In this document: piece by piece, positions 1 through 64,000 of the stretch | Layout: the number at the start of each line of letters is the position of its first letter | Numbering within the stretch: the stretch's first letter is position 1 | Origin: Leptogorgia sarmentosa | Lineage: Eukaryota | DNA length: 64,000 nucleotides | NCBI GenBank assembly: GCA_964658305.1 | Contig: OZ210885.1 | Span: forward strand, 2,914,001 to 2,978,000 | Reading direction: 5' to 3' | The notes under the pieces: model-generated | Told to the model about the DNA's origin: nothing | Seen by the model: the letters and a program-made list of their open reading frames with translations, nothing else | Database searches by the model: none | Program-made: the position numbers and the translations under genes

Positions 1-2643
1 GGAAAGATGGCAAAAAAGCAGTCAACGCTTGATTTCTTTATACGAAATGCTAATGAAGCAAACGAACCAGCTCAAGCGTACATGGCGAATGGTAGTTCAA
101 ATTCACAATTGCTACACGAGCAGTCAGATCAATCGAGTGAACTCAACGAAGCGAATAATACCGAAAGTTCTTCAACTTTAAGCTCAACAGTTTCAGGTGA
201 CAGTAATTCTGAGGCTGAACATGACTCTGTTCTCCACGAAACTACATCAAAAGAAATTGAAGTGGTGCCTACTAAATCTGGAGAGAGAAAAAGAATAAGA
301 TGCAAAGTTTGCAATGAAAATTCGGATGTTGTTAAAAGGTTTTGCTACAGAGGTCGAATTCCCCCCATCTGCACACCAACAGGAGCAGAAGCCCGTAGTG
401 GAACAACAGCAACCCATCTCAGAAGTGAAGCTCATAAAGAGTCCGTTAAGTTAAATAGAATCAAGGGGTTATCTTCGTCTGAAAAATTACAAGCAATACC
501 CTTATTCAAGATAGCAAATGCACAAACACATCTTCTCGCCAATCGAATCGGTAAATTGATAATTCAGGTGTACAACGATGCAAAAAATTTGTCAATTTCC
601 GCCTTTTCCTGGCCATCAAGAGTCGTAGCTAGTGAAATTGCTCACACTTTCGATTATAACAGTCCTTTTGAAGAGTATGACGCGTCAGTATTCGACTTAC
701 AATACGTCACACCAGCAAGTCATCAGCAACTTTTGAAAATTATCGTGCAGGCCGACTTACCAAGATTTAAAGAAGAAATCGATGATTGTCTGGCAGCGTC
801 TTTCCGTTGTGATGCTTCAATGGATCGTACTCAAAAAGATAACGAGTTCATGTTGTTAAATGTTATTAACAAACATGGAAACGAATTGCTTCGTTATGTT
901 GGTCTTGGCCATGTTAAAAATAGAGGTGCCAAGGGTCATTTAGAAGCATTGAAGGAAGGCGCAACTGATACAATTGGTTTGAATAAAGTGTTGACCATTT
1001 CCAACCATATGACAACGGATGGGGAAAACAAGAATGTCGGTGAGCATAATGGGCTGTGGAAATTGATTGATGATGAAAGAGCCAAAGAAGAAGCTACCTT
1101 TCCAATGTTGAAGTCAGTCTGTGCAGTTCACTCTTCTGCATTAGCGTACCATGACCTGTGTAAGGACGTTTCAGAAGTAGATACTCTGATACGAAAAGTT
1201 TCTGGCATCTCCTCATTTTTCCATGCGTCAGCAGTTCGTACGGCAGAGCTTGAAAAGTATGCTAAAGAGCAAGACCTTAAAGTTAGGCGCTTACCAAGGT
1301 ATTACGAAGTCAGGTGGACGGAATTTACAGCAGGTTTGATTGACGCTGTTCTCATCTCTTGGAGGGCACTTATGGTGTTTTGTGAAAGATCAGAGGAAGA
1401 GCAAGCGAAAGGTTTCGGGAAACTGTTCTCAAACAAAGACAACTTAATGCTTATGTGCTTACTGGGCGACGTTCTTTTCCTTCTGAAGGTGTTCCAGAAG
1501 AAGTTGCAAGGAGACGACGTAACAATCGTTGATATTGTCCCAGAAACAAAGAAGTTCATTGCCAAAATCGACAAATTACACCAACGCCCAATTCTTGGTG
1601 GATGGGAAGATAAGTTTTTACAAAGCTACGATGAGGAAGATGGAACATTTTTTGGGAGAGTTTTGTGGCAAAAAGAACGACGCACATCTCGTAGAAATCT
1701 CTATGTTTCCGAAAGGAGAGCGTTCTCCGCGATAAAGGTTGAAGTATTACAGTCATTGCGTAATTTTATGGAAACAAGGCTCAAGATAGATGATCACATG
1801 AAAGAAAATTTTTCTTCATTTGTAAAGTTTACTGCAAGTGAAGCAGTTATCCGAGAGATTCATGCTTCAGTGGCACCGGATCTCGACCTGCGATATCTGG
1901 CACAAGAGTATGAAGATGTACAGGAAAGCACCATGCATAAAGGCAACCCCAAAGCTTTATTGCAAAACCTGTGTGCAAATTCTAACAAGACTGAAACGCT
2001 AACAGAGGTGCTGGCCCGGATACTTGTATGCAAACCACACTCAGCAGATTGTGAAAGATTAGTCTCTGCCTACAACACCGTAAAGACGAATTCAAGGAAT
2101 CGTCTTGAACGCGAAACGGTGAGTAATTATCTTTATGTCAACATCAACATGCCAGTCTTGTCAAAATTCGACCCAAGGCCTGCCGTTCGTCATTTTATCG
2201 ATGAAAGAAGACGGCGCGTGAAGGATACACCAAAGGCTGACAGGCAAGCATGGTTTCAGAAAGTTTTTCAACGCGATGATACGGATGAAACTGAGAGTGA
2301 TGTAGAAGATGCAGACAATGCGACAAAACAGAAAAAATTGAATCGTGAATTTTAGTCTTACATACTTTTCAATTACGGTGACAGGTGACATTCACGAGAC
2401 ATTAATATAGTTCAAATTCAGAACATAAAACTGTAGCGAATTTACAGAAGTTTTTGCCTATTTCGCTTTTTGCTAAATAATATGTAAAGGAACCGTTGTT
2501 GTTGTATGCTTAAAGGTTAATCCCAAATTCTAATAAATGATAAATATCGCATTTTATCACTGCACAAAATCTCTTTTATCACTGCACAAATCTCATTTAT
2601 CACTGCACAAATTGGTTATCACTGCACCTTAGAATAATCCCTG
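1..2643 (+). mobile_element. Autonomous hAT DNA transposon, right portion (left end outside the window)
   Basis: The transposase ORF is followed by four subterminal TTATCACTGCAC repeats (~2553-2627) and the terminus CCTTAGAATAATCCCTG ending at 2643. The same TIR bounds 8-bp-TSD MITEs at 35421 and 36266. Confidence 0.88.
7..2355 (+). CDS. hAT-superfamily transposase (ZNF862/KIAA1586-like), intact single-exon ORF, 782 aa
   Basis: N-terminal CxxC...H...H zinc finger (CKVC...THLRSEAH). Catalytic-type motifs SFRCDASMD (D1), TTDGE (D2), CAVH (CxxH), VRW and SADCER (E). C-terminal hAT dimerisation-like ERLVS...KTNSRNRL. Confidence 0.9.
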   Translation: MAKKQSTLDFFIRNANEANEPAQAYMANGSSNSQLLHEQSDQSSELNEANNTESSSTLSSTVSGDSNSEAEHDSVLHETTSKEIEVVPTKSGERKRIRCKVCNENSDVVKRFCYRGRIPPICTPTGAEARSGTTATHLRSEAHKESVKLNRIKGLSSSEKLQAIPLFKIANAQTHLLANRIGKLIIQVYNDAKNLSISAFSWPSRVVASEIAHTFDYNSPFEEYDASVFDLQYVTPASHQQLLKIIVQADLPRFKEEIDDCLAASFRCDASMDRTQKDNEFMLLNVINKHGNELLRYVGLGHVKNRGAKGHLEALKEGATDTIGLNKVLTISNHMTTDGENKNVGEHNGLWKLIDDERAKEEATFPMLKSVCAVHSSALAYHDLCKDVSEVDTLIRKVSGISSFFHASAVRTAELEKYAKEQDLKVRRLPRYYEVRWTEFTAGLIDAVLISWRALMVFCERSEEEQAKGFGKLFSNKDNLMLMCLLGDVLFLLKVFQKKLQGDDVTIVDIVPETKKFIAKIDKLHQRPILGGWEDKFLQSYDEEDGTFFGRVLWQKERRTSRRNLYVSERRAFSAIKVEVLQSLRNFMETRLKIDDHMKENFSSFVKFTASEAVIREIHASVAPDLDLRYLAQEYEDVQESTMHKGNPKALLQNLCANSNKTETLTEVLARILVCKPHSADCERLVSAYNTVKTNSRNRLERETVSNYLYVNINMPVLSKFDPRPAVRHFIDERRRRVKDTPKADRQAWFQKVFQRDDTDETESDVEDADNATKQKKLNREF

Positions 2644-9748: not shown

Positions 9749-10228
9749 TTAAGCCTGTTATGTCGGTTTTTTATAACCAATAGGATTGCGTCTTCGTGTT
9801 TTCAAACATAGGTAGCCCAACGTAGTACGCAATACGTAGTTAGTATAAAATATATAATTTCATTTATAAAATAACCGGAAGTAAGTGAAAAAAGACGCGC
9901 GTGTGATTGGCTAACAGCCGTGTTGATGTGAGATTATGTAAACACAGCTATTTCCCGCTGCTTCTCGCTATTGCGTTATTCCGCTTTTGTCATCGCCCTT
10001 CGGGCTTGTGTTTCCACACATTTCTCGTTCTCCCAAACTAGCACTCGTGTTTACATAACTCAATGTAAGCATGGAAAATGTTTTCTATTCCTTAAATATA
10101 ATATATATATAAATTATACTAATGAATACTACGACTACATCATGCGTGCGTTAATTGGGCTTATCACTGTTGTAAAAATTAACGTCACGCCGTCATTAGA
10201 CATGGTGTCGAATGAATAATAGCCGAAC

Positions 10229-29400: not shown

Positions 29401-31416
29401 ATCACAAAATTCCTGCCACCCAATCAGTTATCAATGAGTTCGATTAATTGGTGCCAGTACCTAGTACGTACATTGATAAACTTCGAATTGGCTATCACTA
29501 ATACCTAATGAACTAGCTCTTCCTGTTGAATGTAGTAATTCATGCTACTGTAATTTGTTTAAGTGTGTGTCAGAAAGTCAAGGTTTATATATACTTCTTT
29601 CACCTTTTGCAAATATATAACCAAATCATGCTTTCCGACCATGCTCCTTAACCATGATCCTCAACCATGCCCTTGATCATGTTTCCTAACTAATGCTCTT
29701 TAACTGTGCTTTAACCAAAACTTACCGGGAATAATGTTCAAGACAAAATCCAGTATATGACTGTGCGCATGTTTTTTTATGAAAATAATTAAGAAATTAT
29801 TTGATGAGGTTTTTGTGATATGCGGAATTATCAAGGTCGAGGTAAGCCTTATCATCAGCCGAGCCGAATGTTTTATCATACATTTGAAGAATAATAAACA
29901 AAGTATTAACACATGGAAAACTTTATTTGACGTATAGGTAATAGTATGGTTTCGAGTGCAATTTGGAATTAACATGCACGAGTGAGTTTTCCAAAGTCCT
30001 CAAAATAGCACGAGTCCGAAGAACGAGTGCTATTTGAGAGTTTTGAGGTCTTTGGAAAACTCACGAGTGTATGTTATCCAAATTGCACGAGAAACCATAC
30101 TCTTACTTGTTAATAGTTTGCATAAAAGTATTTGAGACAATTGTAGTTTTAACTGTCTCAAAGCGAAATTTCACCGGCAGAGTTTTCTTGCTTAGTTTAT
30201 TTCACATTTTACAGCGATAACGGTTTCAAAAATTCACCCAAACACGTAACTTTTGTTAGTCTTGTTGGAGATAAACTTTTTTCCGTCATAAGAAAAAGCT
30301 AAAAGCTATATTTTCGACTCTAATTTGATTGGTTGAAAGTGATAACAATTGCACCGTGATAACACAAAATTGCACTGTGATAACATGTGCACGAAATTTT
30401 CACACTGTGATTACACAAAATTGCACTGTGATTACACAAAATTGCACTGTGATTACAGAAAATTGCACTGTGATTACACGAAATTGCACTGTGATTACAG
30501 AAAATTGCACTGTGATTACAGAAAATTGCACTGTGATTACACGAAATTGCACTGTGATTACACAAAATTGCACTGTGATTACAGAAAATTGCACTGTGAT
30601 TACACAAAATTGCACTGTGATTACACAAAATTGCACTGTGATTACACAAAATTGTACTGTGATTACAGAAAATTGCACTGTGATAACACGAAATTGCACT
30701 GTGATTACAGAAAATTGCACTGTGATTACAGAAAATTGCACTGTGATTACAAAAAATTGCACTGTGATTACAGAAAATTGCACTGTGATTTGGGATTAAC
30801 TGCACTGAAATGAACCAATTGGAGTCGAGTAATACTTTTATGTATATTAATAATGATATAATAAGCATTTGTCTGTGTTAATTAAATAGATACCGCTTGC
30901 TAATCATTGCAGGTTCATTTTGCAGACAACTCAGTCATCTGCTAGCAGATAACTGGATTTTCTGCATGTTGTGTGAAGCTCTTAGCCAATCAAATTGCTA
31001 TTACCAATTACAATGTATAATAACTTAAGTTACATGCAAAATAATACAGTTAGCATTGCATAAATTGTAAATACATCAATACTGTACGTACCTGCTTTAA
31101 TCGTTGGTTTCCTTCAACGAGTATTTTATTTTGCTTTCTTAGCGTTGTTACCTCCTTACAGAAGATACAGAAAGATTGTCAGTAACAAATCACAAAATTC
31201 CTACCACCCAATCAGTTATCAATGAGTTCGATTAATTGGTGCCAGGCCTTGTTCGTAAACTTCCAATTGGCTGTGATCACTAATAGCTAATGACCAGTAA
31301 TTCTTGCTACTATAATTTGCAGTAACATTGTAAAATATGTGCTGGCTAAATACACTGATGCATGTCTCCTTTAATTCTTGGTTTTCTACTGTCAGTTGCC
31401 TTTGCAACTGTTCAAC
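26499..31416 (-). CDS. Uncharacterised coiled-coil + putative papain-fold domain protein, paralogue C (start exon not found)
   Basis: Phase-compatible exons 31416-31354, 31154-31092, 29366-29304 (63 nt each), 28729-28616, 28304-28198, 27313-27238 and 27131-26499. The last two are homologous to exons of A and B. Confidence 0.65.
29943..30850 (+). mobile_element. Interspersed element with a one-sided 159-bp hairpin (29943-30101) and a 21-bp minisatellite; copies start at 44105 and 58649
   Basis: Interrupts the second copy of a duplicated intron segment (28861-29457 versus 29734-31243). No TIRs seen. Confidence 0.6.
30347..30789. repeat. 21-bp minisatellite AATTGCACTGTGATTACA(G/C)(A/G)A, about 21 units; 5 units shorter at ~44509-44846 and ~59053-59390
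   Basis: Directly visible. It explains the NCTVIT and CNHSAI ORFs. Confidence 0.95.
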
Positions 31417-31946: not shown

Positions 31947-34816
31947 ATAAATGAATAGAATGGGAGTGTTTGTGTTCTAGTTGGTGCGTAATGATTCGAT
32001 GATATTCAGCCCTATTAATATGCAATATAGCGATTAAATTGCCAAATATTCTGTACTGTAATGGATTACATATACTGAATCTATGTATTGACTATTGACA
32101 GACTAAGATCGACGATCACAACATTCTTAGTACATAATTATATCATTACTTACATTAACCTTTTCCAAATCCATATGTCGCAAAAGACCTCTGGCAAAAG
32201 ACAATGATATCTAAATAAATACAGACATATTCAAACAATTATCTGACATTATACATCAAAACGGAAATATTAAATTCCAAAATAATAATGAACCTCCTTA
32301 AACAGATAATGTTAATGTAATACTACTCCAATTACGCACTGTACTAACAATTCCAAAACTTCACACACAAAAATGTTTACAAATGACATTACATGGGTTT
32401 TTTTCGTTTTTTTCTTCAATACTATCTTCAATATTATTTCGATTACTCAGCATAAAAATCAGTGATCAGCGCTCTCACAACGAATTTTCAAAATTCCTTA
32501 GCGTGAGCTCCGGAATTCCTCAGATATTCCCAAAATTCCTTAAATGACTTGTTTATCCTTGCAACTACCCCCAAAGTACCCTGCAATCCCGTTCTTTTGC
32601 CTCTTGTTTTAAAAACAAGACTCAAATAGTTTCAAAATCGTTAATAAACACAATTTGTGAGGTACCTGAGCTTACTAAAGTATATACAAGATAAAATGGG
32701 ATAGAATGAGCAGTGGCGTAGCGAAGCCATTCCGATAGGGGTGGTGTAAAGCAAAATATTTTACCGACCTAAATAGGTTTGGGCACGACAGGGCCAGATT
32801 ATTTGGCGGGGAGGGCGAGTCTCACGAGACGCCACCATGGTTGGCGTCGAGCGAGAAAATTTTGTGAATTTAGAGCCTCTAGATCGCCGGAAACGGCCAT
32901 TTCAGAGTGTTAACCAAAGCCTTAACACTCAGAATAGAGTCTAGAGGTCTTAGATGTAGTACAACCACAGCTTGCGAACTAATCGCACACGGACATAGAC
33001 AACAGACATATACTTTTACATATTTTACTTTTCTACTCTCTCTGTGATTTAATGACATAAATTGAAAATTTACCGACCCTTTGGCTTCAAAACCGACCAC
33101 AATTCATTTACCGACCATTTTCAAAAAAATTGGGGGGGTGTCACACCCCCCACACCCCCCACACCCCCCCCCCCCCCCCCCTCGCTACGCCCCTGAATAC
33201 TACGCTGAATGTGTGCTTTACAAAGATATTTTAATTTGTGAATAAGACAGTACTCAATATATGTGCACTTGTCAATCTTTTACATTCTATATTCTCACTC
33301 AGCTTAGTGTTAGGCTATTGAAATTATGAAAATAGATCATTTTCAATACTCGCTGTTCACACAATTTGAACACAACTGATTTCAAAAGATAATTTCTTAT
33401 ATAATGTAGAACACGAATATGTGAATATTCTTAAATATATTGCAAAATTAGCTAAATAAATATCAAAGCACTAACTTGATTGTTGCGTTTAATATTCATA
33501 TTTAATTTCTAGGTTACAGACTCAATGTGACAATTTTGATGACAAAAGTGGTGTCTGACTGGCTTGCCTGTATATTAGAATGTGTCAAAGAGCCTTGCTG
33601 TCGATCAATCAATTATAAAAAGATACTGATAGCTCAGAATGAATCGAATTGTGAAATGTTGCATAATACGGTCCACAACTCTTCTCAGAAATCTTTACAA
33701 GCAAATTTTTCTTATGACCATGTTTATCTCAGTAATCCTCAAAAGGTAAAAATAATTCACTACGCATAAAGGTACTACGATTTGTCGAGCACAATTCGGA
33801 GTCTGGCGTATGTAATCGGGTGAACACGCGCGAGAAAGTCGCATTTCAAATTACGATTCAAACTTTACACCCAGGAATTACATGCAGAGGTCTAACTGTT
33901 GTACCCATTTTTGTGCGCATGCTCGGCAAGTTACTTGATGCGTACATCTGATTGGATGACGACCAAATTTGAACTTGCCGAGTTGATCATTTTTTAGCCA
34001 GGCCGCATTAAAAAAGTGGGCACATGAAAATGCCACTTTTTAATATTTAGTTAGACCTCTGTCTGATATATACTCTGTGCTCTTAACGAAGTAGAATGAT
34101 GGCATACGTCTTTTTTCATACGTCTGAATGCGAATTGTACCGACTAATCGTAGCGTGTAAACGTATCTTGAAAGTGCACATGTCTAAAATCTTGCACTAA
34201 CAAAGTGTAAAGATCAAGATCACATAATTGAAAAACGCACCATGACCAATGTCTCTTTGAATACTAAACGAATGTAAAAAACATTGGTTGGAAATAATTT
34301 GTTTCGTCAGATGTATTTGATAGAGTTCTAGAAAAAATCTTGAAAAATTTCAAATAAATCAACATCGTCTATAATAAGACGATGAACTTCCGTCGACTTG
34401 ACGAATTCTGATTTATCATTGAGGTGATGAGTTCACATGATGCCATACAATCGATGCCAGTCTATAGTATACTCTCGAATTATCTTTCCAGTATACAACA
34501 TCACCGAACATTTTTGTTCTCCTTATTTCGCATTAAACCTGTTTCATGCGAAACAGAATCTATTCGGTTTTTAGAAATTTTATTACCAAAAAGAATAAGA
34601 TTATCCAAGAATACATTATTAGTGTCCATTTATAGGAATACAATGAAAGCTGCTTTTCGAAGGTCCTAAATGGCAATATAAAAGGTAAGTGATATGCGAT
34701 GATCTCTTAGAGTCCATTTTGGGTCAAAGTATTTTTACTTTTAATTAATAGCTATAATAAACAACCTTAACGATCTCAAAATTTCAAAATCATCGAAGTT
34801 TGAAATAGAGGGATAT

Positions 34817-36590: not shown

Positions 36591-38175
36591 GTTGAACGAT
36601 GAGCAGGTGAATTAAACCGTGTTGATTTAAACCGTCCTTTTTATTACAGCAAAAGATTGCGCTGATCTTTATAAGGAAGGTCACACAACAAATGGTGTTT
36701 ATTTCATTGATCCAGACGGCAAAGGCGCATTTAAAGTAAGATGTGATATGACGACATCAGGAGGGGGTTGGACGATCATTCAAAGACGTGTTGATGGTAG
36801 TGTAGATTTCTACCGTAACTGGAAAGATTACAAAAATGGTTTTGGTGATCCAACAGGCGAATATTGGCTTGGTCTGGACAAAATCAACCGACTAACAAAT
36901 GTCAGTACAAAAGTCATTCGATTCGACCTTTGGGACACAACAGGAAACACGAAGTACGCTGAATACAGCTTCTTTGCCATCGCTTCAGAAGATGCCAAAT
37001 ATAAATTGAGATTGGATACATATTCAGGTAACACAGTTTAAAGAACGAGACAATGGTTGACACTCAGTGGCGTAGCGAAGCCATTCCGATAGGGGGGGGT
37101 GTAAAGCAAAATATTTTACCGACCTAAATAGGTTTGGGCACGACAGGGCCAGATTATTTGGCGGGGAGGGCGAGTCTCACGAGACGCCACCATGGTTGGC
37201 GTCGAGCGAGAAAATTTTGTGAATTTAGAGCCTCTAGATCGCCGGAAACGGCCATTTCAGAGTGTTAACCAAAGCCTTAACACTCAGAATAGAGTCTAGA
37301 GGTCTTAGATGTAGTACAACCACAGCTTGCGAACTAATCGCACACGGACATAGACAACAGACATATACTTTTACATATTTTACTTTTCTACTCTCTCTGT
37401 GATTTAATGACATAAATTGAAAATTTACCGACCCTTTGGCTTCAAAACCGACCACAATTCATTTACCGACCATTTTCAAAAAAATAGGGGGGGTGTCACA
37501 CCCCCCACACCCCCCCCCCCTCGCTACGCCCCTGAGAATGAGCGACTTATCATCTCCTGAGCCGGACCGGAAGCGCACATTCGCGCAATTTATCAGAAAC
37601 TATAATTATGTAAATTAACTATAATCACCATTTCTTAAATTTTAGTTTGCTGTGACATGTGTTTCACAGGCATTTTACCACTAAGATAAAGAATTACCTT
37701 ATTATTAATTAGTAATTCTTTAGCTCAGGGCATTTTACCAAAGGCTTTTCTCACTGAGCTAAAGAATTACTGGAGAGAGTGGCTTTTCTCGAAATATTAA
37801 AATTCCTTAGAAAATTCCTTAAAAATTGAACTCCTTAAAAAAATCCTTAAAACTTTGCTAAATTCCTATTTCTGAGGAAAAATCCTTAGAAGTGAGAGCA
37901 CTGTCAGTGATAAAAATATATATTCAAGCAGCTGGGAAAATTGAGGAAAATTGAGGTGGAAAATTGCTGGAAAATTGAGGAAATTGCAACAGCTGGGAAA
38001 TTTGTGGCGCATGCGCTAGATTTGGCTTGCGTGGAATCCCACGAATAATGAACTCGCGCGCGAATTTCGAATGTCGTGGAAGCATAACAATAAGAAATTC
38101 CTATTCAAACTAATTAAATATCCATGATCCCGATGACGTCATTAGCAGTATATAATCCCCAGTGAACTCTTATCA

Positions 38176-38310
38176 GTTATCGACCTGGAACGAGGGGTAT
38201 TCCACAAAAAAATACCCCGAGGAATGAAATATTCCGAGGGCGCAGCCCGAGGAATATTTCATTCCGAGGGGTATTTTTTTGTGGAATACCCCGAGTGAAA
38301 GGTCGATAAC
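38176..38310 (+). repeat. 135-bp hairpin with CGAG/CGAG mismatches and a GCA loop (copies 52227-52361, 61338-61472)
   Basis: Arms are complementary except at the CGAG boxes and one GGAA/TGAA internal mismatch near the base. Confidence 0.9.
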
Positions 38311-39645
38311 AGATATATTATACCGAAAATTTTTCATCTTCGACACATTCTGTGTTTTGTCGGCCATGTTGCCAAGGAAATTGCCCGCAAAACAGGCCAG
38401 GCAGGAGGTCAAAATCCAAGTAGAGGGGAATATAAAGTGGAATTACCCTCCCAAGGTCAAATCGAGGGAAATACCGTAAAAAATCACACTATCACGTGGT
38501 ACAAATGCTGTTTTTTCATTGGACAATTTGAATTTGAGGTATAATATTATATAATAATATATATATCTGGAACGATAACATTCAGTCATTCAATGCGAAA
38601 AACGTGAAGCCTCGGTACTAGTCTTTTACGCGGTTTGGACGTCAGCCTCAGTCCCTCAAACGTCAAGTTTACGCGGTTTGGACGTCAGTTTCATTCCCCC
38701 TCTGCAAACCGTTACGCGGCCAGTATAAATGCGAACGCAATCAAGAAAAAAACATTTAAAAAATATCGCCAACGCAATGCAATACATTGTAGGAACAAAC
38801 TGTTTTGCTCCTAAAATTTATCGCATTGCGTTCGCTGTCAGAAAATGAAAGATAACCGATTCAGACGGTTTTTCTTTGTAAACCATAGCAGTATTTATTA
38901 GTATATAAATATTATAAGGTTGGCAAGTAAACAATAATGTGACTTACTACGGCTTACTAAAACAAGTCGAAAAAATCAACGTCTTGCCAACAAACGTCGC
39001 TAAAAAATAGCAGCCCCTACTTCTAGGATAGTGTTACTAAATACATACAACGTTGAACGTTTTTTGGCAACAAAACGAGTGAAAAAGTCGAAAAAATACG
39101 AAAAATTTCTTTCAATTTGCCGTGTCTCGAAGCTGGATGCCTTCTGACATCGCTGACGCGATCTTTTGTCGGTTTATTTATAACGAAGACAATGACGAAG
39201 ACAATGACGAAGACAATGACGAACACTTCTGTCGTGATACTTTTGTTGGCTTCACTTTTCGCTCTATGTTATCGTTCCAGATATAATATATAGAGTTCAC
39301 TGATAATCCCCTGCTTGATTTGGCCGCCATTTTGGGTCAATGTGCATCGTAGGCACTGAGCTATAAGAAGACTGGAGAGAGTGCACGCACTTTTTTTCAG
39401 ATAAAAGAGTGAAGCCAAAATAATGGCGTGGATTCATGTGATTCGTCATCATTCCATGACAGCACTTGCTCCGTCCTCATGGTATTTACCACTGACCAGG
39501 CTCAAATCTGAGCCCACTGCCGTTTTCACACCCCTGTCTGCGAGACTGCGTGCGCAGATACAAAAATATGGTTTGATTCCTCCACCCTCAAAAAATTGTA
39601 CTGTTCCCCAGAATTAAGACAATCGGAAGAAAGGACAGACACCAG

Positions 39646-44000: not shown

Positions 44001-45473
44001 GAGGTAAGCCTTATCATCAGCCGAGCCGAATGTTTTATCATACATTTGAAGAATAATAAACAAAGTATTAACACATGGAAAACTTTATTTGACGTATAGG
44101 TAATAGTATGGTTTCGAGTGCAATTTGGAATTAACATGCACGAGTGAGTTTTCCAAAGTCCTCAAAATAGCACGAGTCCGAAGAACGAGTGCTATTTGAG
44201 AGTTTTGAGGTCTTTGGAAAACTCACGAGTGTATGTTATCCAAATTGCACGAGAAACCATACTCTTACTTGTTAATAGTTTGCATAAAAGTATTTGAGAC
44301 AATTGTAGTTTTAACTGTCTCAAAGCGAAATTTCACCGGCAGAGTTTTCTTGCTTAGTTTATTTCACATTTTACAGCGATAACGGTTTCAAAAATTCACC
44401 CAAACACGTAACTTTTGTTAGTCTTGTTGGAGATAAACTTTTTTCCGTCATAAGAAAAAGCTAAAAGCTATATTTTCGACTCTAATTTGATTGGTTGAAA
44501 GTGATAACAATTGCACCGTGATAACACAAAATTGCACTGTGATAACATGTGCACGAAATTTTCACACTGTGATTACACAAAATTGCACTGTGATTACAGA
44601 AAATTGCACTGTGATTACACGAAATTGCACTGTGATTACAGAAAATTGCACTGTGATTACAGAAAATTGCACTGTGATTACACGAAATTGCACTGTGATT
44701 ACACAAAATTGTACTGTGATTACAGAAAATTGCACTGTGATAACACGAAATTGCACTGTGATTACAGAAAATTGCACTGTGATTACAGAAAATTGCACTG
44801 TGATTACAAAAAATTGCACTGTGATTACAGAAAATTGCACTGTGATTTGGGATTAACTGCACTGAAATGAACCAATTGGAGTCGAGTAATACTTTTATGT
44901 ATATTAATAATGATATAATAAGCATTTGTCTGTGTTAATTAAATAGATACCGCTTGCTAATCATTGCAGGTTCATTTTGCAGACAACTCAGTCATCTGCT
45001 AGCAGATAACTGGATTTTCTGCATGTTGTGTGAAGCTCTTAGCCAATCAAATTGCTATTACCAATTACAATGTATAATAACTTAAGTTACATGCAAAATA
45101 ATACAGTTAGCATTGCATAAATTGTAAATACATCAATACTGTACGTACCTGCTTTAATCGTTGGTTTCCTTCAACGAGTATTTTATTTTGCTTTCTTAGC
45201 GTTGTTACCTCCTTACAGAAGATACAGAAAGATTGTCAGTAACAAATCACAAAATTCCTACCACCCAATCAGTTATCAATGAGTTCGATTAATTGGTGCC
45301 AGGCCTTGTTCGTAAACTTCCAATTGGCTGTGATCACTAATAGCTAATGACCAGTAATTCTTGCTACTATAATTTGCAGTAACATTGTAAAATATGTGCT
45401 GGCTAAATACACTGATGCATGTCTCCTTTAATTCTTGGTTTTCTACTGTCAGTTGCCTTTGCAACTGTTCAAC
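41040..45473 (-). pseudogene. Truncated copy of paralogue C, unit 2
   Basis: Premature stop at 41135 (HAYL*) and a ~550-bp deletion (unit-1 26328-26880) that removes the His and DNQ motifs. Confidence 0.85.
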
Positions 45474-49500: not shown

Positions 49501-51954
49501 CCAATTTGTGCAGTGATAAATGAGAATTGTGCAGTGATAAAATACATTTTGTGCAGTGAGTAAAATATGTTATCCCATGGTTATTCATCATTTATTAGAA
49601 TTTGGGAATAACTTTAAGCATATACAACAGCAATAGTTTCATAACTTTACATATTTTAGCAAAAAGCTAAATAGGAAAATAGGAAACAGTTTGATGTTCT
49701 GAATTGGGCAGTCAGACCTTTTCCAATACAACTTTATATTCACATATTTCTATATTTTGTTGTGCTTTTGTGCAGTGATAAAATTTCCTTAGAATAATCC
49801 CTGGTTTGTAGAGAATTTAAATGTTCAATGGTGGCGCCTCGAACAGAACAAAACAATTATACACACTAGAGAAATTTGGCCCCGCTAGTAAAAGTCCCTT
49901 TTCGTCTGAAAATCAGCGAAATTCATGCTGAAATTGCAGGAAGTCAAGTTTAGGGAGCTCAAAGATCAAACAAAATTTTGTTGGACCCCCTTTAACGTAG
50001 CTACATTTCTTTATTGTTTCATAATTATTTTCCTTTCCTTTCCATCCTTCCTATTTTATAATGATATTTCCACCCTTCATTAAAGTCCCTTTTCGTGTTT
50101 GCCCCACTGAACAACCTTAAAAAAGGCCCTGCAAAGAATTTTGCTTTTTATGGTGCGATACAAAACACGTGACATCAACATGTGCACTTTTTATTGAATT
50201 GTACCCCCATTATGAAAATGGACGCGCCGGCCCTGAGGGATATTATAAAATGATATTATAACATCTATTCTAAGTAAAATAATAGTAGGCAGTAATAACA
50301 TGAAGCACAGTTGAACGCAGGGATTATTCTAAGGAAATTTTATCACTGCACAAAAGCACAAAAAAATATAAAAATATGTGAATATAAAGTTGTGTTGGCA
50401 TGGAAAAGGTCTGACTGCCCAATTCAGAACATCAAACTGTTTCCTATTTTCCTATTTAGCTTTTTGCTAAAATATGTAAAGTTATGAAACTATTACTGTT
50501 GTATATGCTTAAAGTTATTCCCAAATTCTAATGAATGATGAATAACATATTTTATTCACTGCACAAAATGTATTTTATCACTGCACAATTCTCATTTATC
50601 ACTGCACAAATTGGTTATCACTGCACCTTAGAATAATCCCTGGTTGAACGATGAGCAGGTGAATTAAACCGTGTTGATTTAAACCGTCCTTTTTATTACA
50701 GCAAAAGATTGCGCTGATCTTTATAAGGAAGGTCACACAACAAATGGTGTTTATTTCATTGATCCAGACGGCAAAGGCGCATTTAAAGTAAGATGTGATA
50801 TGACGACATCAGGAGGGGGTTGGACGATCATTCAAAGACGTGTTGATGGTAGTGTAGATTTCTACCGTAACTGGAAAGATTACAAAAATGGTTTTGGTGA
50901 TCCAACAGGCGAATATTGGCTTGGTCTGGACAAAATCAACCGACTAACAAATGTCAGTACAAAAGTCATTCGATTCGACCTTTGGGACACAACAGGAAAC
51001 ACGAAGTACGCTGAATACAGCTTCTTTGCCATCGCTTCAGAAGATGCCAAATATAAATTGAGATTGGATACATATTCAGGTAACACAGTTTAAAGAACGA
51101 GACAATGGTTGACACTCAGTGGCGTAGCGAAGCCATTCCGATAGGGGGGGGTGTAAAGCAAAATATTTTACCGACCTAAATAGGTTTGGGCACGACAGGG
51201 CCAGATTATTTGGCGGGGAGGGCGAGTCTCACGAGACGCCACCATGGTTGGCGTCGAGCGAGAAAATTTTGTGAATTTAGAGCCTCTAGATCGCCGGAAA
51301 CGGCCATTTCAGAGTGTTAACCAAAGCCTTAACACTCAGAATAGAGTCTAGAGGTCTTAGATGTAGTACAACCACAGCTTGCGAACTAATCGCACACGGA
51401 CATAGACAACAGACATATACTTTTACATATTTTACTTTTCTACTCTCTCTGTGATTTAATGACATAAATTGAAAATTTACCGACCCTTTGGCTTCAAAAC
51501 CGACCACAATTCATTTACCGACCATTTTCAAAAAAATAGGGGGGGTGTCACACCCCCCACACCCCCCCCCCTCGCTACGCCCCTGAGAATGAGCGACTTA
51601 TCATCTCCTGAGCCGGACCGGAAGCGCACATTCGCGCAATTTATCAGAAACTATAATTATGTAAATTAACTATAATCACCATTTCTTAAATTTTAGTTTG
51701 CTGTGACATGTGTTTCACAGGCATTTTACCACTAAGATAAAGAATTACCTTATTATTAATTAGTAATTCTTTAGCTCAGGGCATTTTACCAAAGGCTTTT
51801 CTCACTGAGCTAAAGAATTACTGGAGAGAGTGGCTTTTCTCGAAATATTAAAATTCCTTAGAAAATTCCTTAAAAATTGAACTCCTTAAAAAAATCCTTA
51901 AAACTTTGCTAAATTCCTATTTCTGAGGAAAAATCCTTAGAAGTGAGAGCACTG
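46524..51954. mobile_element. Loaded hAT MITE, unit 2; composite element 46768-51585 (MITEs 46768-47245 and 51117-51585)
   Basis: Same TIRs and TSDs (TCAGTGAT, AGAATGAG) as in unit 1. Confidence 0.93.
47563..51079 (+). pseudogene. Captured PAN + FReD exons, unit 2 (47563-47795, 48686-48734, 50702-51079)
   Basis: Translations identical to unit 1. Confidence 0.88.
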
Positions 51955-52804
51955 TCAGTGATAAAAATATATATTCAAGCAGCTGGGAAAATTGAGGAAA
52001 ATTGAGGTGGAAAATTGCTGGAAAATTGAGGAAATTGCAACAGCTGGGAAATTTGTGGCGCATGCGCTAGATTTGGCTTGCGTGGAATCCCACGAATAAT
52101 GAACTCGCGCGCGAATTTCGAATGTCGTGGAAGCATAACAATAAGAAATTCCTATTCAAACTAATTAAATATCCATGATCCCGATGACGTCATTAGCAGT
52201 ATATAATCCCCAGTGAACTCTTATCAGTTATCGACCTGGAACGAGGGGTATTCCACAAAAAAATACCCCGAGGAATGAAATATTCCGAGGGCGCAGCCCG
52301 AGGAATATTTCATTCCGAGGGGTATTTTTTTGTGGAATACCCCGAGTGAAAGGTCGATAACAGATATATTATACCGAAAATTTTTCATCTTCGACACATT
52401 CTGTGTTTTGTCGGCCATGTTGCCAAGGAAATTGCCCGCAAAACAGGCCAGGCAGGAGGTCAAAATCCAAGTAGAGGGGAATATAAAGTGGAATTACCCT
52501 CCCAAGGTCAAATCGAGGGAAATACCGTAAAAAATCACACTATCACGTGGTACAAATGCTGTTTTTTCATTGGACAATTTGAATTTGAGGTATAATATTA
52601 TATAATAATATATATATCTGGAACGATAACATTCAGTCATTCAATGCGAAAAACGTGAAGCCTCGGTACTAGTCTTTTACGCGGTTTGGACGTCAGCCTC
52701 AGTCCCTCAAACGTCAAGTTTACGCGGTTTGGACGTCAGTTTCATTCCCCCTCTGCAAACCGTTACGCGGCCAGTATAAATGCGAACGCAATCAAGAAAA
52801 AAAC

Positions 52805-53409
52805 CAGTGCTCTCACTTCTAAGGATTTTTCCTCAGAAATAGGAATTTAGCAAAGTTTTAAGGATTTTTTTAAGGAGTTCAATTTTTAAGGAATTTTCTA
52901 AGGAATTTTAATATTTCGAGAAAAGCCACTCTCTCCAGTAATTCTTTAGCTCAGTGAGAAAAGCCTTTGGTAAAATGCCCTGAGCTAAAGAATTACTAAT
53001 TAATAATAAGGTAATTCTTTATCTTAGTGGTAAAATGCCTGTGAAACACATGTCACAGCAAACTAAAATTTAAAAAATGGTGATTATAGTTAATTTACAT
53101 AATTATAGTTTCTGATAAATTGCGCGAATGTGCGCTTCCGGTCCGGCTCAGGAGATGATAAGTCGCTCATTCTATCCCATTTTATCTTGTATATACTTTA
53201 GTAAGCTCAGGTACCTCACAAATTGTGTTTATTAACGATTTTGAAACTATTTGAGTCTTGTTTTTAAAACAAGAGGCAAAAGAACGGGATTGCAGGGTAC
53301 TTTGGGGGTAGTTGCAAGGATAAACAAGTCATTTAAGGAATTTTGGGAATATCTGAGGAATTCCGGAGCTCACGCTAAGGAATTTTGAAAATTCGTTGTG
53401 AGAGCGCTG
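52805..53409 (-). mobile_element. Empty 605-bp copy of the CAGYGCTCTCAC MITE, inserted only in unit 2
   Basis: TSD AAAAAAAC (52797-52804, 53410-53417). Single internal AGAATGAG site. Units 1 and 3 show the empty target (~38750, ~61910). Confidence 0.95.
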
Positions 53410-61073: not shown

Positions 61074-64000
61074 AAAAATATATATTCAAGCAGCTGGGAA
61101 AATTGAGGAAAATTGAGGTGGAAAATTGCTGGAAAATTGAGGAAATTGCAACAGCTGGGAAATTTGTGGCGCATGCGCTAGATTTGGCTTGCGTGGAATC
61201 CCACGAATAATGAACTCGCGCGCGAATTTCGAATGTCGTGGAAGCATAACAATAAGAAATTCCTATTCAAACTAATTAAATATTCATGATCCCGATGACG
61301 TCATTAGCAGTATATAATCCCCAGTGAACTCTTATCAGTTATCGACCTGGAACGAGGGGTATTCCACAAAAAAATACCCCGAGGAATGAAATATTCCGAG
61401 GGCGCAGCCCGAGGAATATTTCATTCCGAGGGGTATTTTTTTGTGGAATACCCCGAGTGAAAGGTCGATAACAGATATATTATACCGAAAATTTTTCATC
61501 TTCGACACATTCTGTGTTTTGTCGGCCATGTTGCCAAGGAAATTGCCCGCAAAACAGGCCAGGCAGGAGGTCAAAATCCAAGTAGAGGGGAATATAAAGT
61601 GGAATTACCCTCCCAAGGTCAAATCGAGGGAAATACCGTAAAAAATCACACTATCACGTGGTACAAATGCTGTTTTTTCATTGGACAATTTGAATTTGAG
61701 GTATAATATTATATAATAATATATATATCTGGAACGATAACATTCAGTCATTCAATGCGAAAAACGTGAAGCCTCGGTACTAGTCTTTTACGCGGTTTGG
61801 ACGTCAGCCTCAGTCCCTCAAACGTCAAGTTTACGCGGTTTGGACGTCAGTTTCATTCCCCCTCTGCAAACCGTTACGCGGCCAGTATAAATGCGAACGC
61901 AATCAAGAAAAAAACATTTAAAAAATATCGCCAACGCAATGCAATACATTGTAGGAACAAACTGTTTTGCTCCTAAAATTTATCGCATTGCGTTCGCTGT
62001 CAGAAAAAGAAAGATAACCGATTCAGACGGTTTTTCTTTGTAAACCATAGCAGTATTTATTAGTATATAAATATTATAAGGTTGGCAAGTAAACAATAAT
62101 GTGACTTACTACGGCTTACTAAAACAAGTCGAAAAAATCAACGTCTTGCCAACAAACGTCGCTAAAAAATAGCAGCCCCTACTTCTAGGATAGTGTTACT
62201 AAATACATACAACGTTGAACGTTTTTTGGCAACAAAACGAGTGAAAAAGTCGAAAAAATACGAAAAATTTCTTTCAATTTGCCGTGTCTCGAAGCTGGAT
62301 GCCTTCTGACATCGCTGACGCGATCTTTTGTCGGTTTATTTATAACGAAGACAATGACGAAGACAATGACGAAGACAATGACGAACACTTCTGTCGTGAT
62401 ACTTTTGTTGGCTTCACTTTTCGCTCTATGTTATCGTTCCAGATATAATATATAGAGTTCACTGATAATCCCCTGCTTGATTTGGCCGCCATTTTGGGTC
62501 AATGTGCATCGTAGGCACTGACCTATAAGAAGACTGGAGAGAGTGCACGCACTTTTTTTCAGATAAAAGAGTGAAGCCAAAATAATGGCGTGGATTCATG
62601 TGATTCGTCATCATTCCATGACAGCACTTGCTCCGTCCTCATGGTATTTACCACTGACCAGGCTCAAATCTGAGCCCACTGCCGTTTTCACACCCCTGTC
62701 TGCGAGACTGCGTGCGCAGATACAAAAATATGGTTTGATTCCTCCACCCTCAAAAAATTGTACTGTTCCCCAGAATTAAGACAATCGGAAGAAAGGACAG
62801 ACACCAGGGGCCGGTTGTATCAAAGGCGTCAAGCTTAAGCGCTGGATAAGTCGAAAATATCCAACGAAATTATGAAGTATTGACTACAAGGAAACTAAAC
62901 TTTTCTGTGTAAACATAACAACTATGCATAGAGATAGAACTACACATTTAGTTGATAAAATTTAAATTCAATTATTTACAAAATGAATAGAAGTGTTTTT
63001 AAAATTTTGCTTATCCACCGTTTAAGCTAAACGTCTTTGGTACAACCGGGCAGAACGCGAGCACATGGATTATGGAAATCGATGAGCAAAAACATGCGCG
63101 CGCAGCACAAATTATTGTTCGACCGCACCCCTCATTTTCTAAAATGACCTGGAGGTTGCGAAATCCCCCCGGAATTATCATCCGGACAGAAACAAATCGA
63201 GATTTCGACTATACATAGTACCGCGCAAAAGACTGGGTCGAGTGAACTCTGGGAAATCCTTGTGACGTCAAGAATAGTGTGCTGACTCGCTGGCGCTCGG
63301 CAGCAATGAAACTGAAAACGTATTGTGACTTGTCAAGGACTACAGTTTACGGAGGCAAACATTCTCGACAGTTCCACTGGTTGCCTCCGGATTCTTTCGT
63401 CTTCCGGTTTCTGTGAAAAGAGTTCATCAACATATTTACTTACTTAGCATTTTGATAAAGAAATGTATCTTCAAAAACGTGTTAATTTGATAATATAGTT
63501 CCAAGCAACACAACCTTCACAACCTAACCTATATCAACTGATTTCATTGTTATCTCATACCGGGTAACTATTGAAATCCGCTAGTTTGTCAGAGCCGCCG
63601 CGCTCTTTTCCTTTTAAACTGATGGAAAACTATCACATCACACTAGTTTGAACTTTGCCTGATTTACATGCATGTTTTAAAGACATGCATGAGTGTTGGT
63701 TAGACTATTCTGCCTTAACTTAAGTCATGACAAACGATCGATTTTTCTTCACGTTTAATCTCTCTTTTAAAAGCAAAACGAATCTATCTTTTAATACGAC
63801 GCCCGAAAAAATAGTCCCCGCCCCTTATACCAATGTCAAATATTCACTTCCGGTTATCCGTGATTGTAGTAAATGAATGACGTATCATTGACATTTGAGA
63901 ACACTACCATATTAGGATGCATGCAAGGATGATAGACACTAAGGCACTAGTTACAGTGATAGATGTATTCTGGAGTAAAGCTTTGTGGTTAAATAATAAA

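Follow-up and report, generated by a model that had tools for sequence, protein, structure and literature searches.

A gene-less element of about 376 bp, which begins with a long hairpin of tandem G·A pairs capped by a GNA triloop, was found in the window (the whole 64,000-nucleotide stretch of DNA that was analysed). Judged from its sequence, this element is very probably a non-autonomous Crypton-type element, membership being assigned by a shared structural plan, and the group to which it belongs is likely that of the CryptonA-type tyrosine recombinases. Because the marks in the hairpin are intelligible if one strand of the DNA is folded, we infer that a single-stranded DNA step in the movement of the element is rather probable. 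More tentatively, animal CryptonA elements may do in eukaryotes what integrons and phage CTX do in prokaryotes: a folded single strand would be excised and inserted by the tyrosine recombinase, sheared G·A pairs and the GNA loop would determine which strand is used, and the recombination site would be composed of the two ends and an internal complement.

The sequence-only reading had described a hairpin at 38176..38310 with CGAG boxes, perfect stems and a GCA loop, and this description was borne out exactly. The CGAG boxes start at 38191, 38218, 38235, 38248, 38265 and 38292, are separated by 23 nt, 13 nt, the loop, 13 nt and 23 nt, and make three facing pairs across the hairpin stem. From the loop to the base, the pairing is 4 bp, GA/GA, 15 bp, GA/GA, 25 bp, GA/GA and 2 bp; nearer the base come a purine loop of 3x3 (GGA/GAA), then 11 bp, one A·A mismatch and a last 4 bp. 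The purine loop and the A·A mismatch were absent from the earlier description, and the structure extends beyond its coordinates, the hairpin covering 38171-38315 and the element reaching to about 38547 (Table 1). The folding z-score was about -17 against 200 shuffles. Hairpins that have a C-GNA-G tip, a stem of 10 pairs or more and one GA tandem occurred three times in the window as compared with none in 100 simulated windows. A search of Rfam gave 10 matches, all under the gathering scores and mostly to generic miRNA hairpins.

Table 1 Positions of the element, its parts and its copies in the window
Feature	Position	Strand	Remark
Whole gene-less element, about 376 bp	38172..38547	+	Ends uncertain by 2-3 nt (AT-rich flanks)
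Left-end hairpin, 145 nt	38171..38315	+	
Left terminus and left arm	38172..38185	+	Complement of 38301-38314
Third GA/GA tandem	38191..38295	+	38192-93 facing 38293-94; purine 3x3 loop beyond (38187-89 / 38297-99)
Second GA/GA tandem	38218..38268	+	38219-20 facing 38266-67; closing C-G to T-A in relatives; 38267 A>C in one relative
Core CGAG-GGC-GCA-GCC-CGAG, 17 nt	38235..38251	+	Innermost GA/GA tandem, 38236-37 facing 38249-50
C-GCA-G triloop	38241..38245	+	GCA 38242-38244, closing pair C38241-G38245; GAA in relatives (38243 C>A; X14, X15)
Internal site (putative recombination or splint site)	38301..38324	+	Arm 38301-09, 7-nt spacer 38310-16, arm 38317-24
Conserved right end	38464..38547	+	Common to very many copies
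TA-rich target tract	38548..38566	.	Organism C junction
Identical copy	52223..52598	+	Segmental duplication, non-independent insertion
Near-identical copy	61334..61709	+	Segmental duplication, non-independent insertion

It had also been claimed that only one strand of the hairpin folds well. This claim could not be maintained: ViennaRNA gave -60.1 versus -59.7 kcal/mol for the two strands, and the perfect stems of 15 and 25 bp fold on either strand. The ViennaRNA model probably contains no special terms for sheared GA pairs or GNA loops. In DNA, C-GNA-G loops are described as having very high stability (PMC3201870) and tandem GA pairs as taking a sheared stacking form (PMC8163305). Since both strands are expected to fold, the role of the marks would be to single out a strand, not to make folding possible; it is more likely that they tell the strands apart than that they decide whether folding occurs.

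The placement of the mismatches is not random, as the same reading had predicted. We compared stems from 20 of 23 families (1,124 pairs; the three families with short stems were dropped and the pattern-selected inner tandem was left out), and 17 of the 29 outer 2x2 mismatches were GA/GA, six were GA/AA and none was TC/TC. At least one outer GA/GA was present in 10 of the 20 families. Other irregularities in these stems comprised 44 single mismatches and 20 bulges, and the marked strands carried 16 G·T as against 8 A·C. The spacing of the boxes varies between families, yet the boxes stay face to face across the stem.

One GTDB genome (G001) is titled a Nitrospirales MAG; it holds animal-like DNA on megabase contigs, with about 150 hairpin cores, and is probably a mis-binned host genome. 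The GA/GA-GNA core had 46 exact matches in G001, and the reversed control had one. The TC/TC-GNA form had no exact match there, and its six one-mismatch matches were all without a GNA loop. Beside DUF3504 genes, at places found without use of the pattern, the DNA-type C-GNA-G triloop was located on the strand of the GA pairs in 10 of 10 cases, some of which are members of the same family and one of which has a discordant tandem at its far end. Several G001 families (L160, L176-L199, which constitute family 2, and L187) share a recurring CAAG/CGCG or CAAG/CGAG mismatch in the stem, which either has arisen by decay of CpG or is another mark that is tolerated.

The ends of the element were placed with matching contigs from 8 sequencing runs; 415 contigs came from one coral metagenome. 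Runs X13-X17, in which the share of matching words was small, were used only once their contigs had been aligned to the region. On the left side, the shared sequence begins at 38168-38172 and is preceded by differing flanks that end in AT. On the right side, a very abundant end at 38547-38549 is followed by many differing flanks. In X1, the summed contig depth, which is not equivalent to copy number, was up to 350,000 at 38517-38543 versus 162 at the left flank. Terminal inverted repeats (TIRs) are not present; the left and right ends are mutually unrelated and each is complementary to an internal site. Thus, the earlier idea of a mobile element without TIRs was upheld by the contigs: the hairpin is an element end, and the flanks change at both boundaries. 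The scanned frames over 38172..38547 gave no Pfam match. Some contigs contain joints from 38315 or 38332 to 38426-38479, by which 93-146 nt are skipped. Because these joints run from the hairpin to the right end, the two ends belong to one family with internal deletions. Non-autonomous derivatives that retain both ends are seen in the window family as deletion joints and in L160 as a graded series. MITE (DDE) identity was rejected, because the palindrome is confined to the left end and there is no TIR pair. The three window copies (loops at 38242, 52293 and 61404; hairpins identical) were not accepted as independent evidence, because all of them are in a tandem segmental duplication of ~14 kb and thus count as one.

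In organism C, the left flank (38160-38170) passes directly into (TA)n and the sequence resumes at 38557; a loose contig end before 38557 was found in X13. The organism C junction is likely an empty site, although it is one observation with repeats as flanks and unproven orthology. By this single likely empty site, insertion into a microsatellite-type (TA)n tract, which is a CryptonV trait, is present here. For Cryptons in general, the trait looked for was a terminal direct repeat or overlap of 4-6 bp. The element ends lie in AT runs and their exact placement is blurred; in the family L128-L130, a 5-bp direct repeat (ACAAG) was seen at two of the three copies.

The internal site at the base of the hairpin reads as the reverse complement of the junction that arises when the right end is joined to the left, the last 10 nt of the element (38538-38547) being complementary to 38315-38324. 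When a single-stranded DNA circle was modelled, 23 of the 24 bases of the internal site were paired, and the pair probabilities of the right-end arm were 0.98-1.0. The computed fold of this circle therefore contains two arms around a short spacer, which is an attC-type trait. Position 38311 is the one left unpaired; many relatives have a T there, although cross-mapping may inflate their number. In the best fold of the linear + strand, the right-end arm was unpaired, and therefore protein help would be needed in the chromosome. In other families, a matching right end was found 250-1,200 nt downstream of the hairpin in about 10 of 23 clusters with strict thresholds, which missed some cases including the short arm of the window element itself.

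Compensated stem changes were observed in single contigs from relatives, at 38231/38255 (X1 record 5 and X5 record 15), at 38212/38274 (X13 record 9) and at both 38218/38268 and 38223/38263 (X15 record 1; also listed for X14). The only loop change was GCA to GAA, so that the loop stays GNA. No variant was listed at 5% or more at the GA positions in four of four of one set of runs. One contig from organism D carries 38267 A>C, which is a GA position, together with an uncompensated change near 38273-38274. Because cross-mapping from arm to arm may fake compensation and may affect 38311, we relied on contigs that span both arms. Template switching can homogenise palindromes and mimic compensation.

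The sequence-only reading had proposed that long copies might encode a Crypton-like tyrosine recombinase or a HUH nuclease. Among long copies with the same plan in G001, some do carry the gene for a tyrosine recombinase of Crypton type; a HUH gene was seen neither in the scanned window frames nor in the long frames of L160 and L154. DUF3504 gave 34 matches in G001, at 26 loci. A core was present within 1.5 kb at 7 of these 26 loci (the seven include one duplicate pair, and two core patterns were scanned), when the random mean was 0.92 and seven was reached in none of 20,000 draws. The other 19 loci had no scanned core inside 1.5 kb, and most cores had no recombinase nearby. One such element is L160, of about 2.3 kb and beside a TA tract. 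It shares the 17-nt core, the loop being GTA, and contains an internal arm that is the complement of its own right end as well as an open frame of 476 codons matching the DUF3504 and QRICH1 profiles. Both ends are retained in its derivatives, which measure about 1 kb and about 300 bp. In L154 (1.6 kb) and L158, DUF3504 frames are likewise enclosed by a hairpin and a matching right end. The long frames of L160 and L154 match only DUF3504, QRICH1 and integrase profiles, and no reverse transcriptase (RT) or HUH frame was seen. The catalytic residues R, K, HxxR, H and Y were all found in L154, and the R-H-R-Y set is complete also in the L156 frame. The L160 protein has HSGK where the others have HSLR, and judged from this sequence the L160 recombinase may be inactive; the L158 frame is degraded, its second R and its Y being missing. 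For four of the eight recombinase-side hairpins (L156, L161, L162 and L206), we did not find a right end such that the entire frame would be enclosed, and in L186 the recombinase frame is outside the element. The protein P0002 had no clear solved relative, the best being QRICH1 (E 0.06).

The window element matches G001 by the core only, plus weakly by the right end. No autonomous partner of the window family was found among the window frames, in the viral contigs (by the right-end motif) or in the G001 comparison. Pfam searches of 5 + 95 window frames of at least 66 aa, with most of the duplicated part set aside, gave neither a recombinase nor a HUH match, and the viral contigs matched neither the right-end motif nor the recombinase query. 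Therefore, the link of the window element to Cryptons rests on the shared plan and the core.

The core is not a diagnostic feature, since it is common in bacterial REP-like repeats for which no recombinase is shown. A scan of metagenomes for the core gave at least 122 stretches; among the matches listed, 107 (in L001-L127) have short stems and come from high-GC loci, and beyond the core none of those listed resembles the window element. Unrelated long-hairpin families with the core occur in low-GC metagenome contigs and in G001. In the high-GC loci L008-L127, GTCAT-tagged REP-like palindromes with the GA/GA-GNA core are abundant, and their core hints that they, too, act as single-stranded DNA rather than RNA. 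The CGTC/TGTC-tagged bacterial REPs treated in PMC3733652 are among the closest known likenesses of the window element, the same 19-nt GA/GA-GNA core standing behind GTCAT tags on high-GC metagenome contigs. Unlike the window element, bacterial REPs have stems of 23-25 nt only and no split ends. The seven viral core matches (L001-L007) have short stems only. Four of these seven viral contigs have the core close to a contig end (about 330 nt away at most), where the DNA seems to be non-coding and contains more palindromes with GNA tips; these cores are possible origin or terminus signals. A low-GC bacterial contig (L061:4950-5250) contains an intergenic core with several more CGAG boxes, possibly a bacterial single-stranded DNA motif. 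Eulor repeats are, by description, hairpins.

Among known transposons, CryptonA elements (Kojima and Jurka 2011, PMC3212892; Glomhopper, PMC13465315) are described as being without TIRs and as having gene-less derivatives that keep both ends, and in both respects the window element is alike. They occur in cnidarians and carry a DUF3504-type recombinase as the sole gene, as do the elements of the same plan in G001 with regard to DUF3504. In the main texts of these two papers, animal Crypton ends are reported without terminal repeats and fungal repeats as poorly conserved, whereas the window element has a marked terminal hairpin and an internal complement; the words "hairpin" and "palindrom" have 0 occurrences there. 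Full-text searches turned up no paper in which Cryptons are described with a GA/GNA hairpin at the terminus or with a complement of the junction. Additional file 1 of PMC3212892 lists Crypton termini and may be relevant, and palindromic derivatives of Cryptons may have been described in Repbase Reports, in Dfam notes or in subscription papers. CryptonV elements (Kapitonov and Jurka 2012), compared here through a citing description (PMC8869645), are cnidarian tyrosine-recombinase transposons, some of which are in microsatellites as the window element is. The cassettes of integrons with attC and the attP of phage CTX combine a tyrosine recombinase, an imperfect palindrome of one strand and replicative resolution, according to PMC9345347, and are thus like our proposal for the window element. 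Those systems are prokaryotic, whereas the window element has symmetric GA/GA pairs and a site that is completed only by its own two ends. For attC, the strand is chosen via extrahelical bases. DIRS elements, as described in PMC7192593, possess an internal complementary region (ICR) matching both extremities, a single-stranded DNA intermediate and a tyrosine recombinase; the first of these is seen in the window element and the other two are proposed for it; in contrast to its internal complement of about 24 nt at the hairpin base, with no RT seen, they have an RT, long inverted repeats and an ICR of 88 nt. DIRS identity was rejected, because the element has no reverse transcriptase or inverted LTRs and the L160 and L154 frames are recombinase-related only.

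How might such an element move? It is quite possible, if short of probable, that the recombinase acts on the folded top strand with replicative resolution, a proposal made by analogy. The strand with the GA pairs and the GNA loop would become single-stranded, probably during replication. The left end would fold onto 38301-38314 and the right end would pair with 38315-38324, the host junctions meeting opposite the 7-nt spacer. A recombinase supplied in trans would then perform one strand exchange and release a single-stranded DNA circle, in which the internal site and the joined ends would form a complete arm-spacer-arm site. This folded site would recombine with a double-stranded AT-rich target, and replication would resolve the junction, as for attC and CTX. 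The sheared GA pairs and the GNA loop would both stabilise one strand and label it, and in duplex DNA they would interrupt the palindrome. Tyrosine recombinases are described as working on folded single strands in integron cassettes and CTX (PMC9345347).

The same internal site might instead serve as a splint in a Crypton-type element with a single-stranded DNA intermediate: it would align the ends of the linear strand for ligation, the hairpin would prime or protect, and the recombinase would act only on a later double-stranded circle. The model for this course is the ICR of DIRS, which is reported in PMC7192593 to be exactly complementary to both extremities and essential, with single-stranded DNA intermediates. 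The segment 38301-38324 follows the same logic, and the strand marks would be explained equally well. However, neither L160 nor L154 shows an RT or HUH frame from which a linear single strand could arise, and the arm-spacer-arm layout suits a recombinase site, for which PMC3212892 gives a spacer of 6-8 bp. We consider the splint fairly unlikely.

Movement as an ordinary double-stranded Crypton, with a spare or regulatory binding site inside and CGAG boxes that serve as protein-binding repeats of the duplex, as interruptions against cruciforms or as RNA structure, seems to us clearly unlikely. A double-stranded circle is the published model (PMC13565253), short terminal direct repeats are present in some families (for example, ACAAG in L128 and L129), and the excess of G·T over A·C on the marked strand (16 versus 8) would suit RNA as well. 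The facing of the boxes across the stem despite family-specific spacing, the constant position of the DNA-type C-GNA-G triloop on the GA strand (10/10 places beside DUF3504 genes) and the lack of any Rfam match at gathering level speak against this reading. It is very unlikely that a different enzyme, namely a HUH nuclease (Helitron, Replitron or REP/RAYT-like) or the recombinase of another Crypton group such as CryptonV, is responsible. The enrichment in G001 and the enclosed frames are of the DUF3504 type, and the scanned window frames contain no HUH frame. The same core does occur in TGTC-tagged bacterial palindromes resembling CGTC REPs, and RAYT HUH enzymes are reported to cut single-stranded GTAG REPs (PMC3733652); however, no transposase is known for CGTC REPs. 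Some CryptonV families are in microsatellites (PMC8869645), as the window element is. The reading that we prefer is that of a CryptonA-type recombinase working on the folded top strand.

In the account given in PMC13565253, the transposition mechanism of Cryptons is without experimental proof and a double-stranded DNA circle is assumed. The anatomy of the element offers a rule for locating Crypton ends, a minimal donor of 376 bp and candidate enzymes; with these three, the mechanism becomes directly testable. If folded single-stranded DNA is read, the enzyme would be a eukaryotic integron-like recombinase. If this is true, it might bear on the past targets of the Crypton-derived human proteins ZMYM2/3/4, QRICH1 and KCTD1.

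The surroundings of the element in the window are those of animal DNA with few long frames, the animal-type exons being fibrinogen-C, PAN, fn3 and SUEL lectin. Together with the coral metagenome contigs that match the region, they point to a host that is probably an anthozoan cnidarian. An open 782-aa frame at 7-2355 (+) is of the hAT transposase type (PF05699, E 8e-5). The region 26881-64000 is the tandem segmental duplication of about 14 kb, in three units that are at least 99% identical, with exons for fibrinogen-C (36631-37038) and PAN (33506-33766); an inverted duplication of 369 bp is present at 51586-53173. Between 38150 and 39310, several elements follow one another in TA tracts: the end of one is at 38170, the hairpin element is next, an element with inverted ends covers about 38560-39285, and the 38160-38170 end recurs in inverse form at 39290, where a further element begins. 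A second element with the same plan and unrelated sequence was seen at 29938-30348 (+), its hairpin appearing again at 44100 and 58644. It has a left-end hairpin with three CGAG/CGAG pairs and a decayed tip containing GAA, and its internal arm is complementary to the likely right end near 30340. A third, decayed candidate at about 9860-10110 (-) has a TA tract, CGAG boxes, a CCCGAAGGG tip and a much changed right arm.
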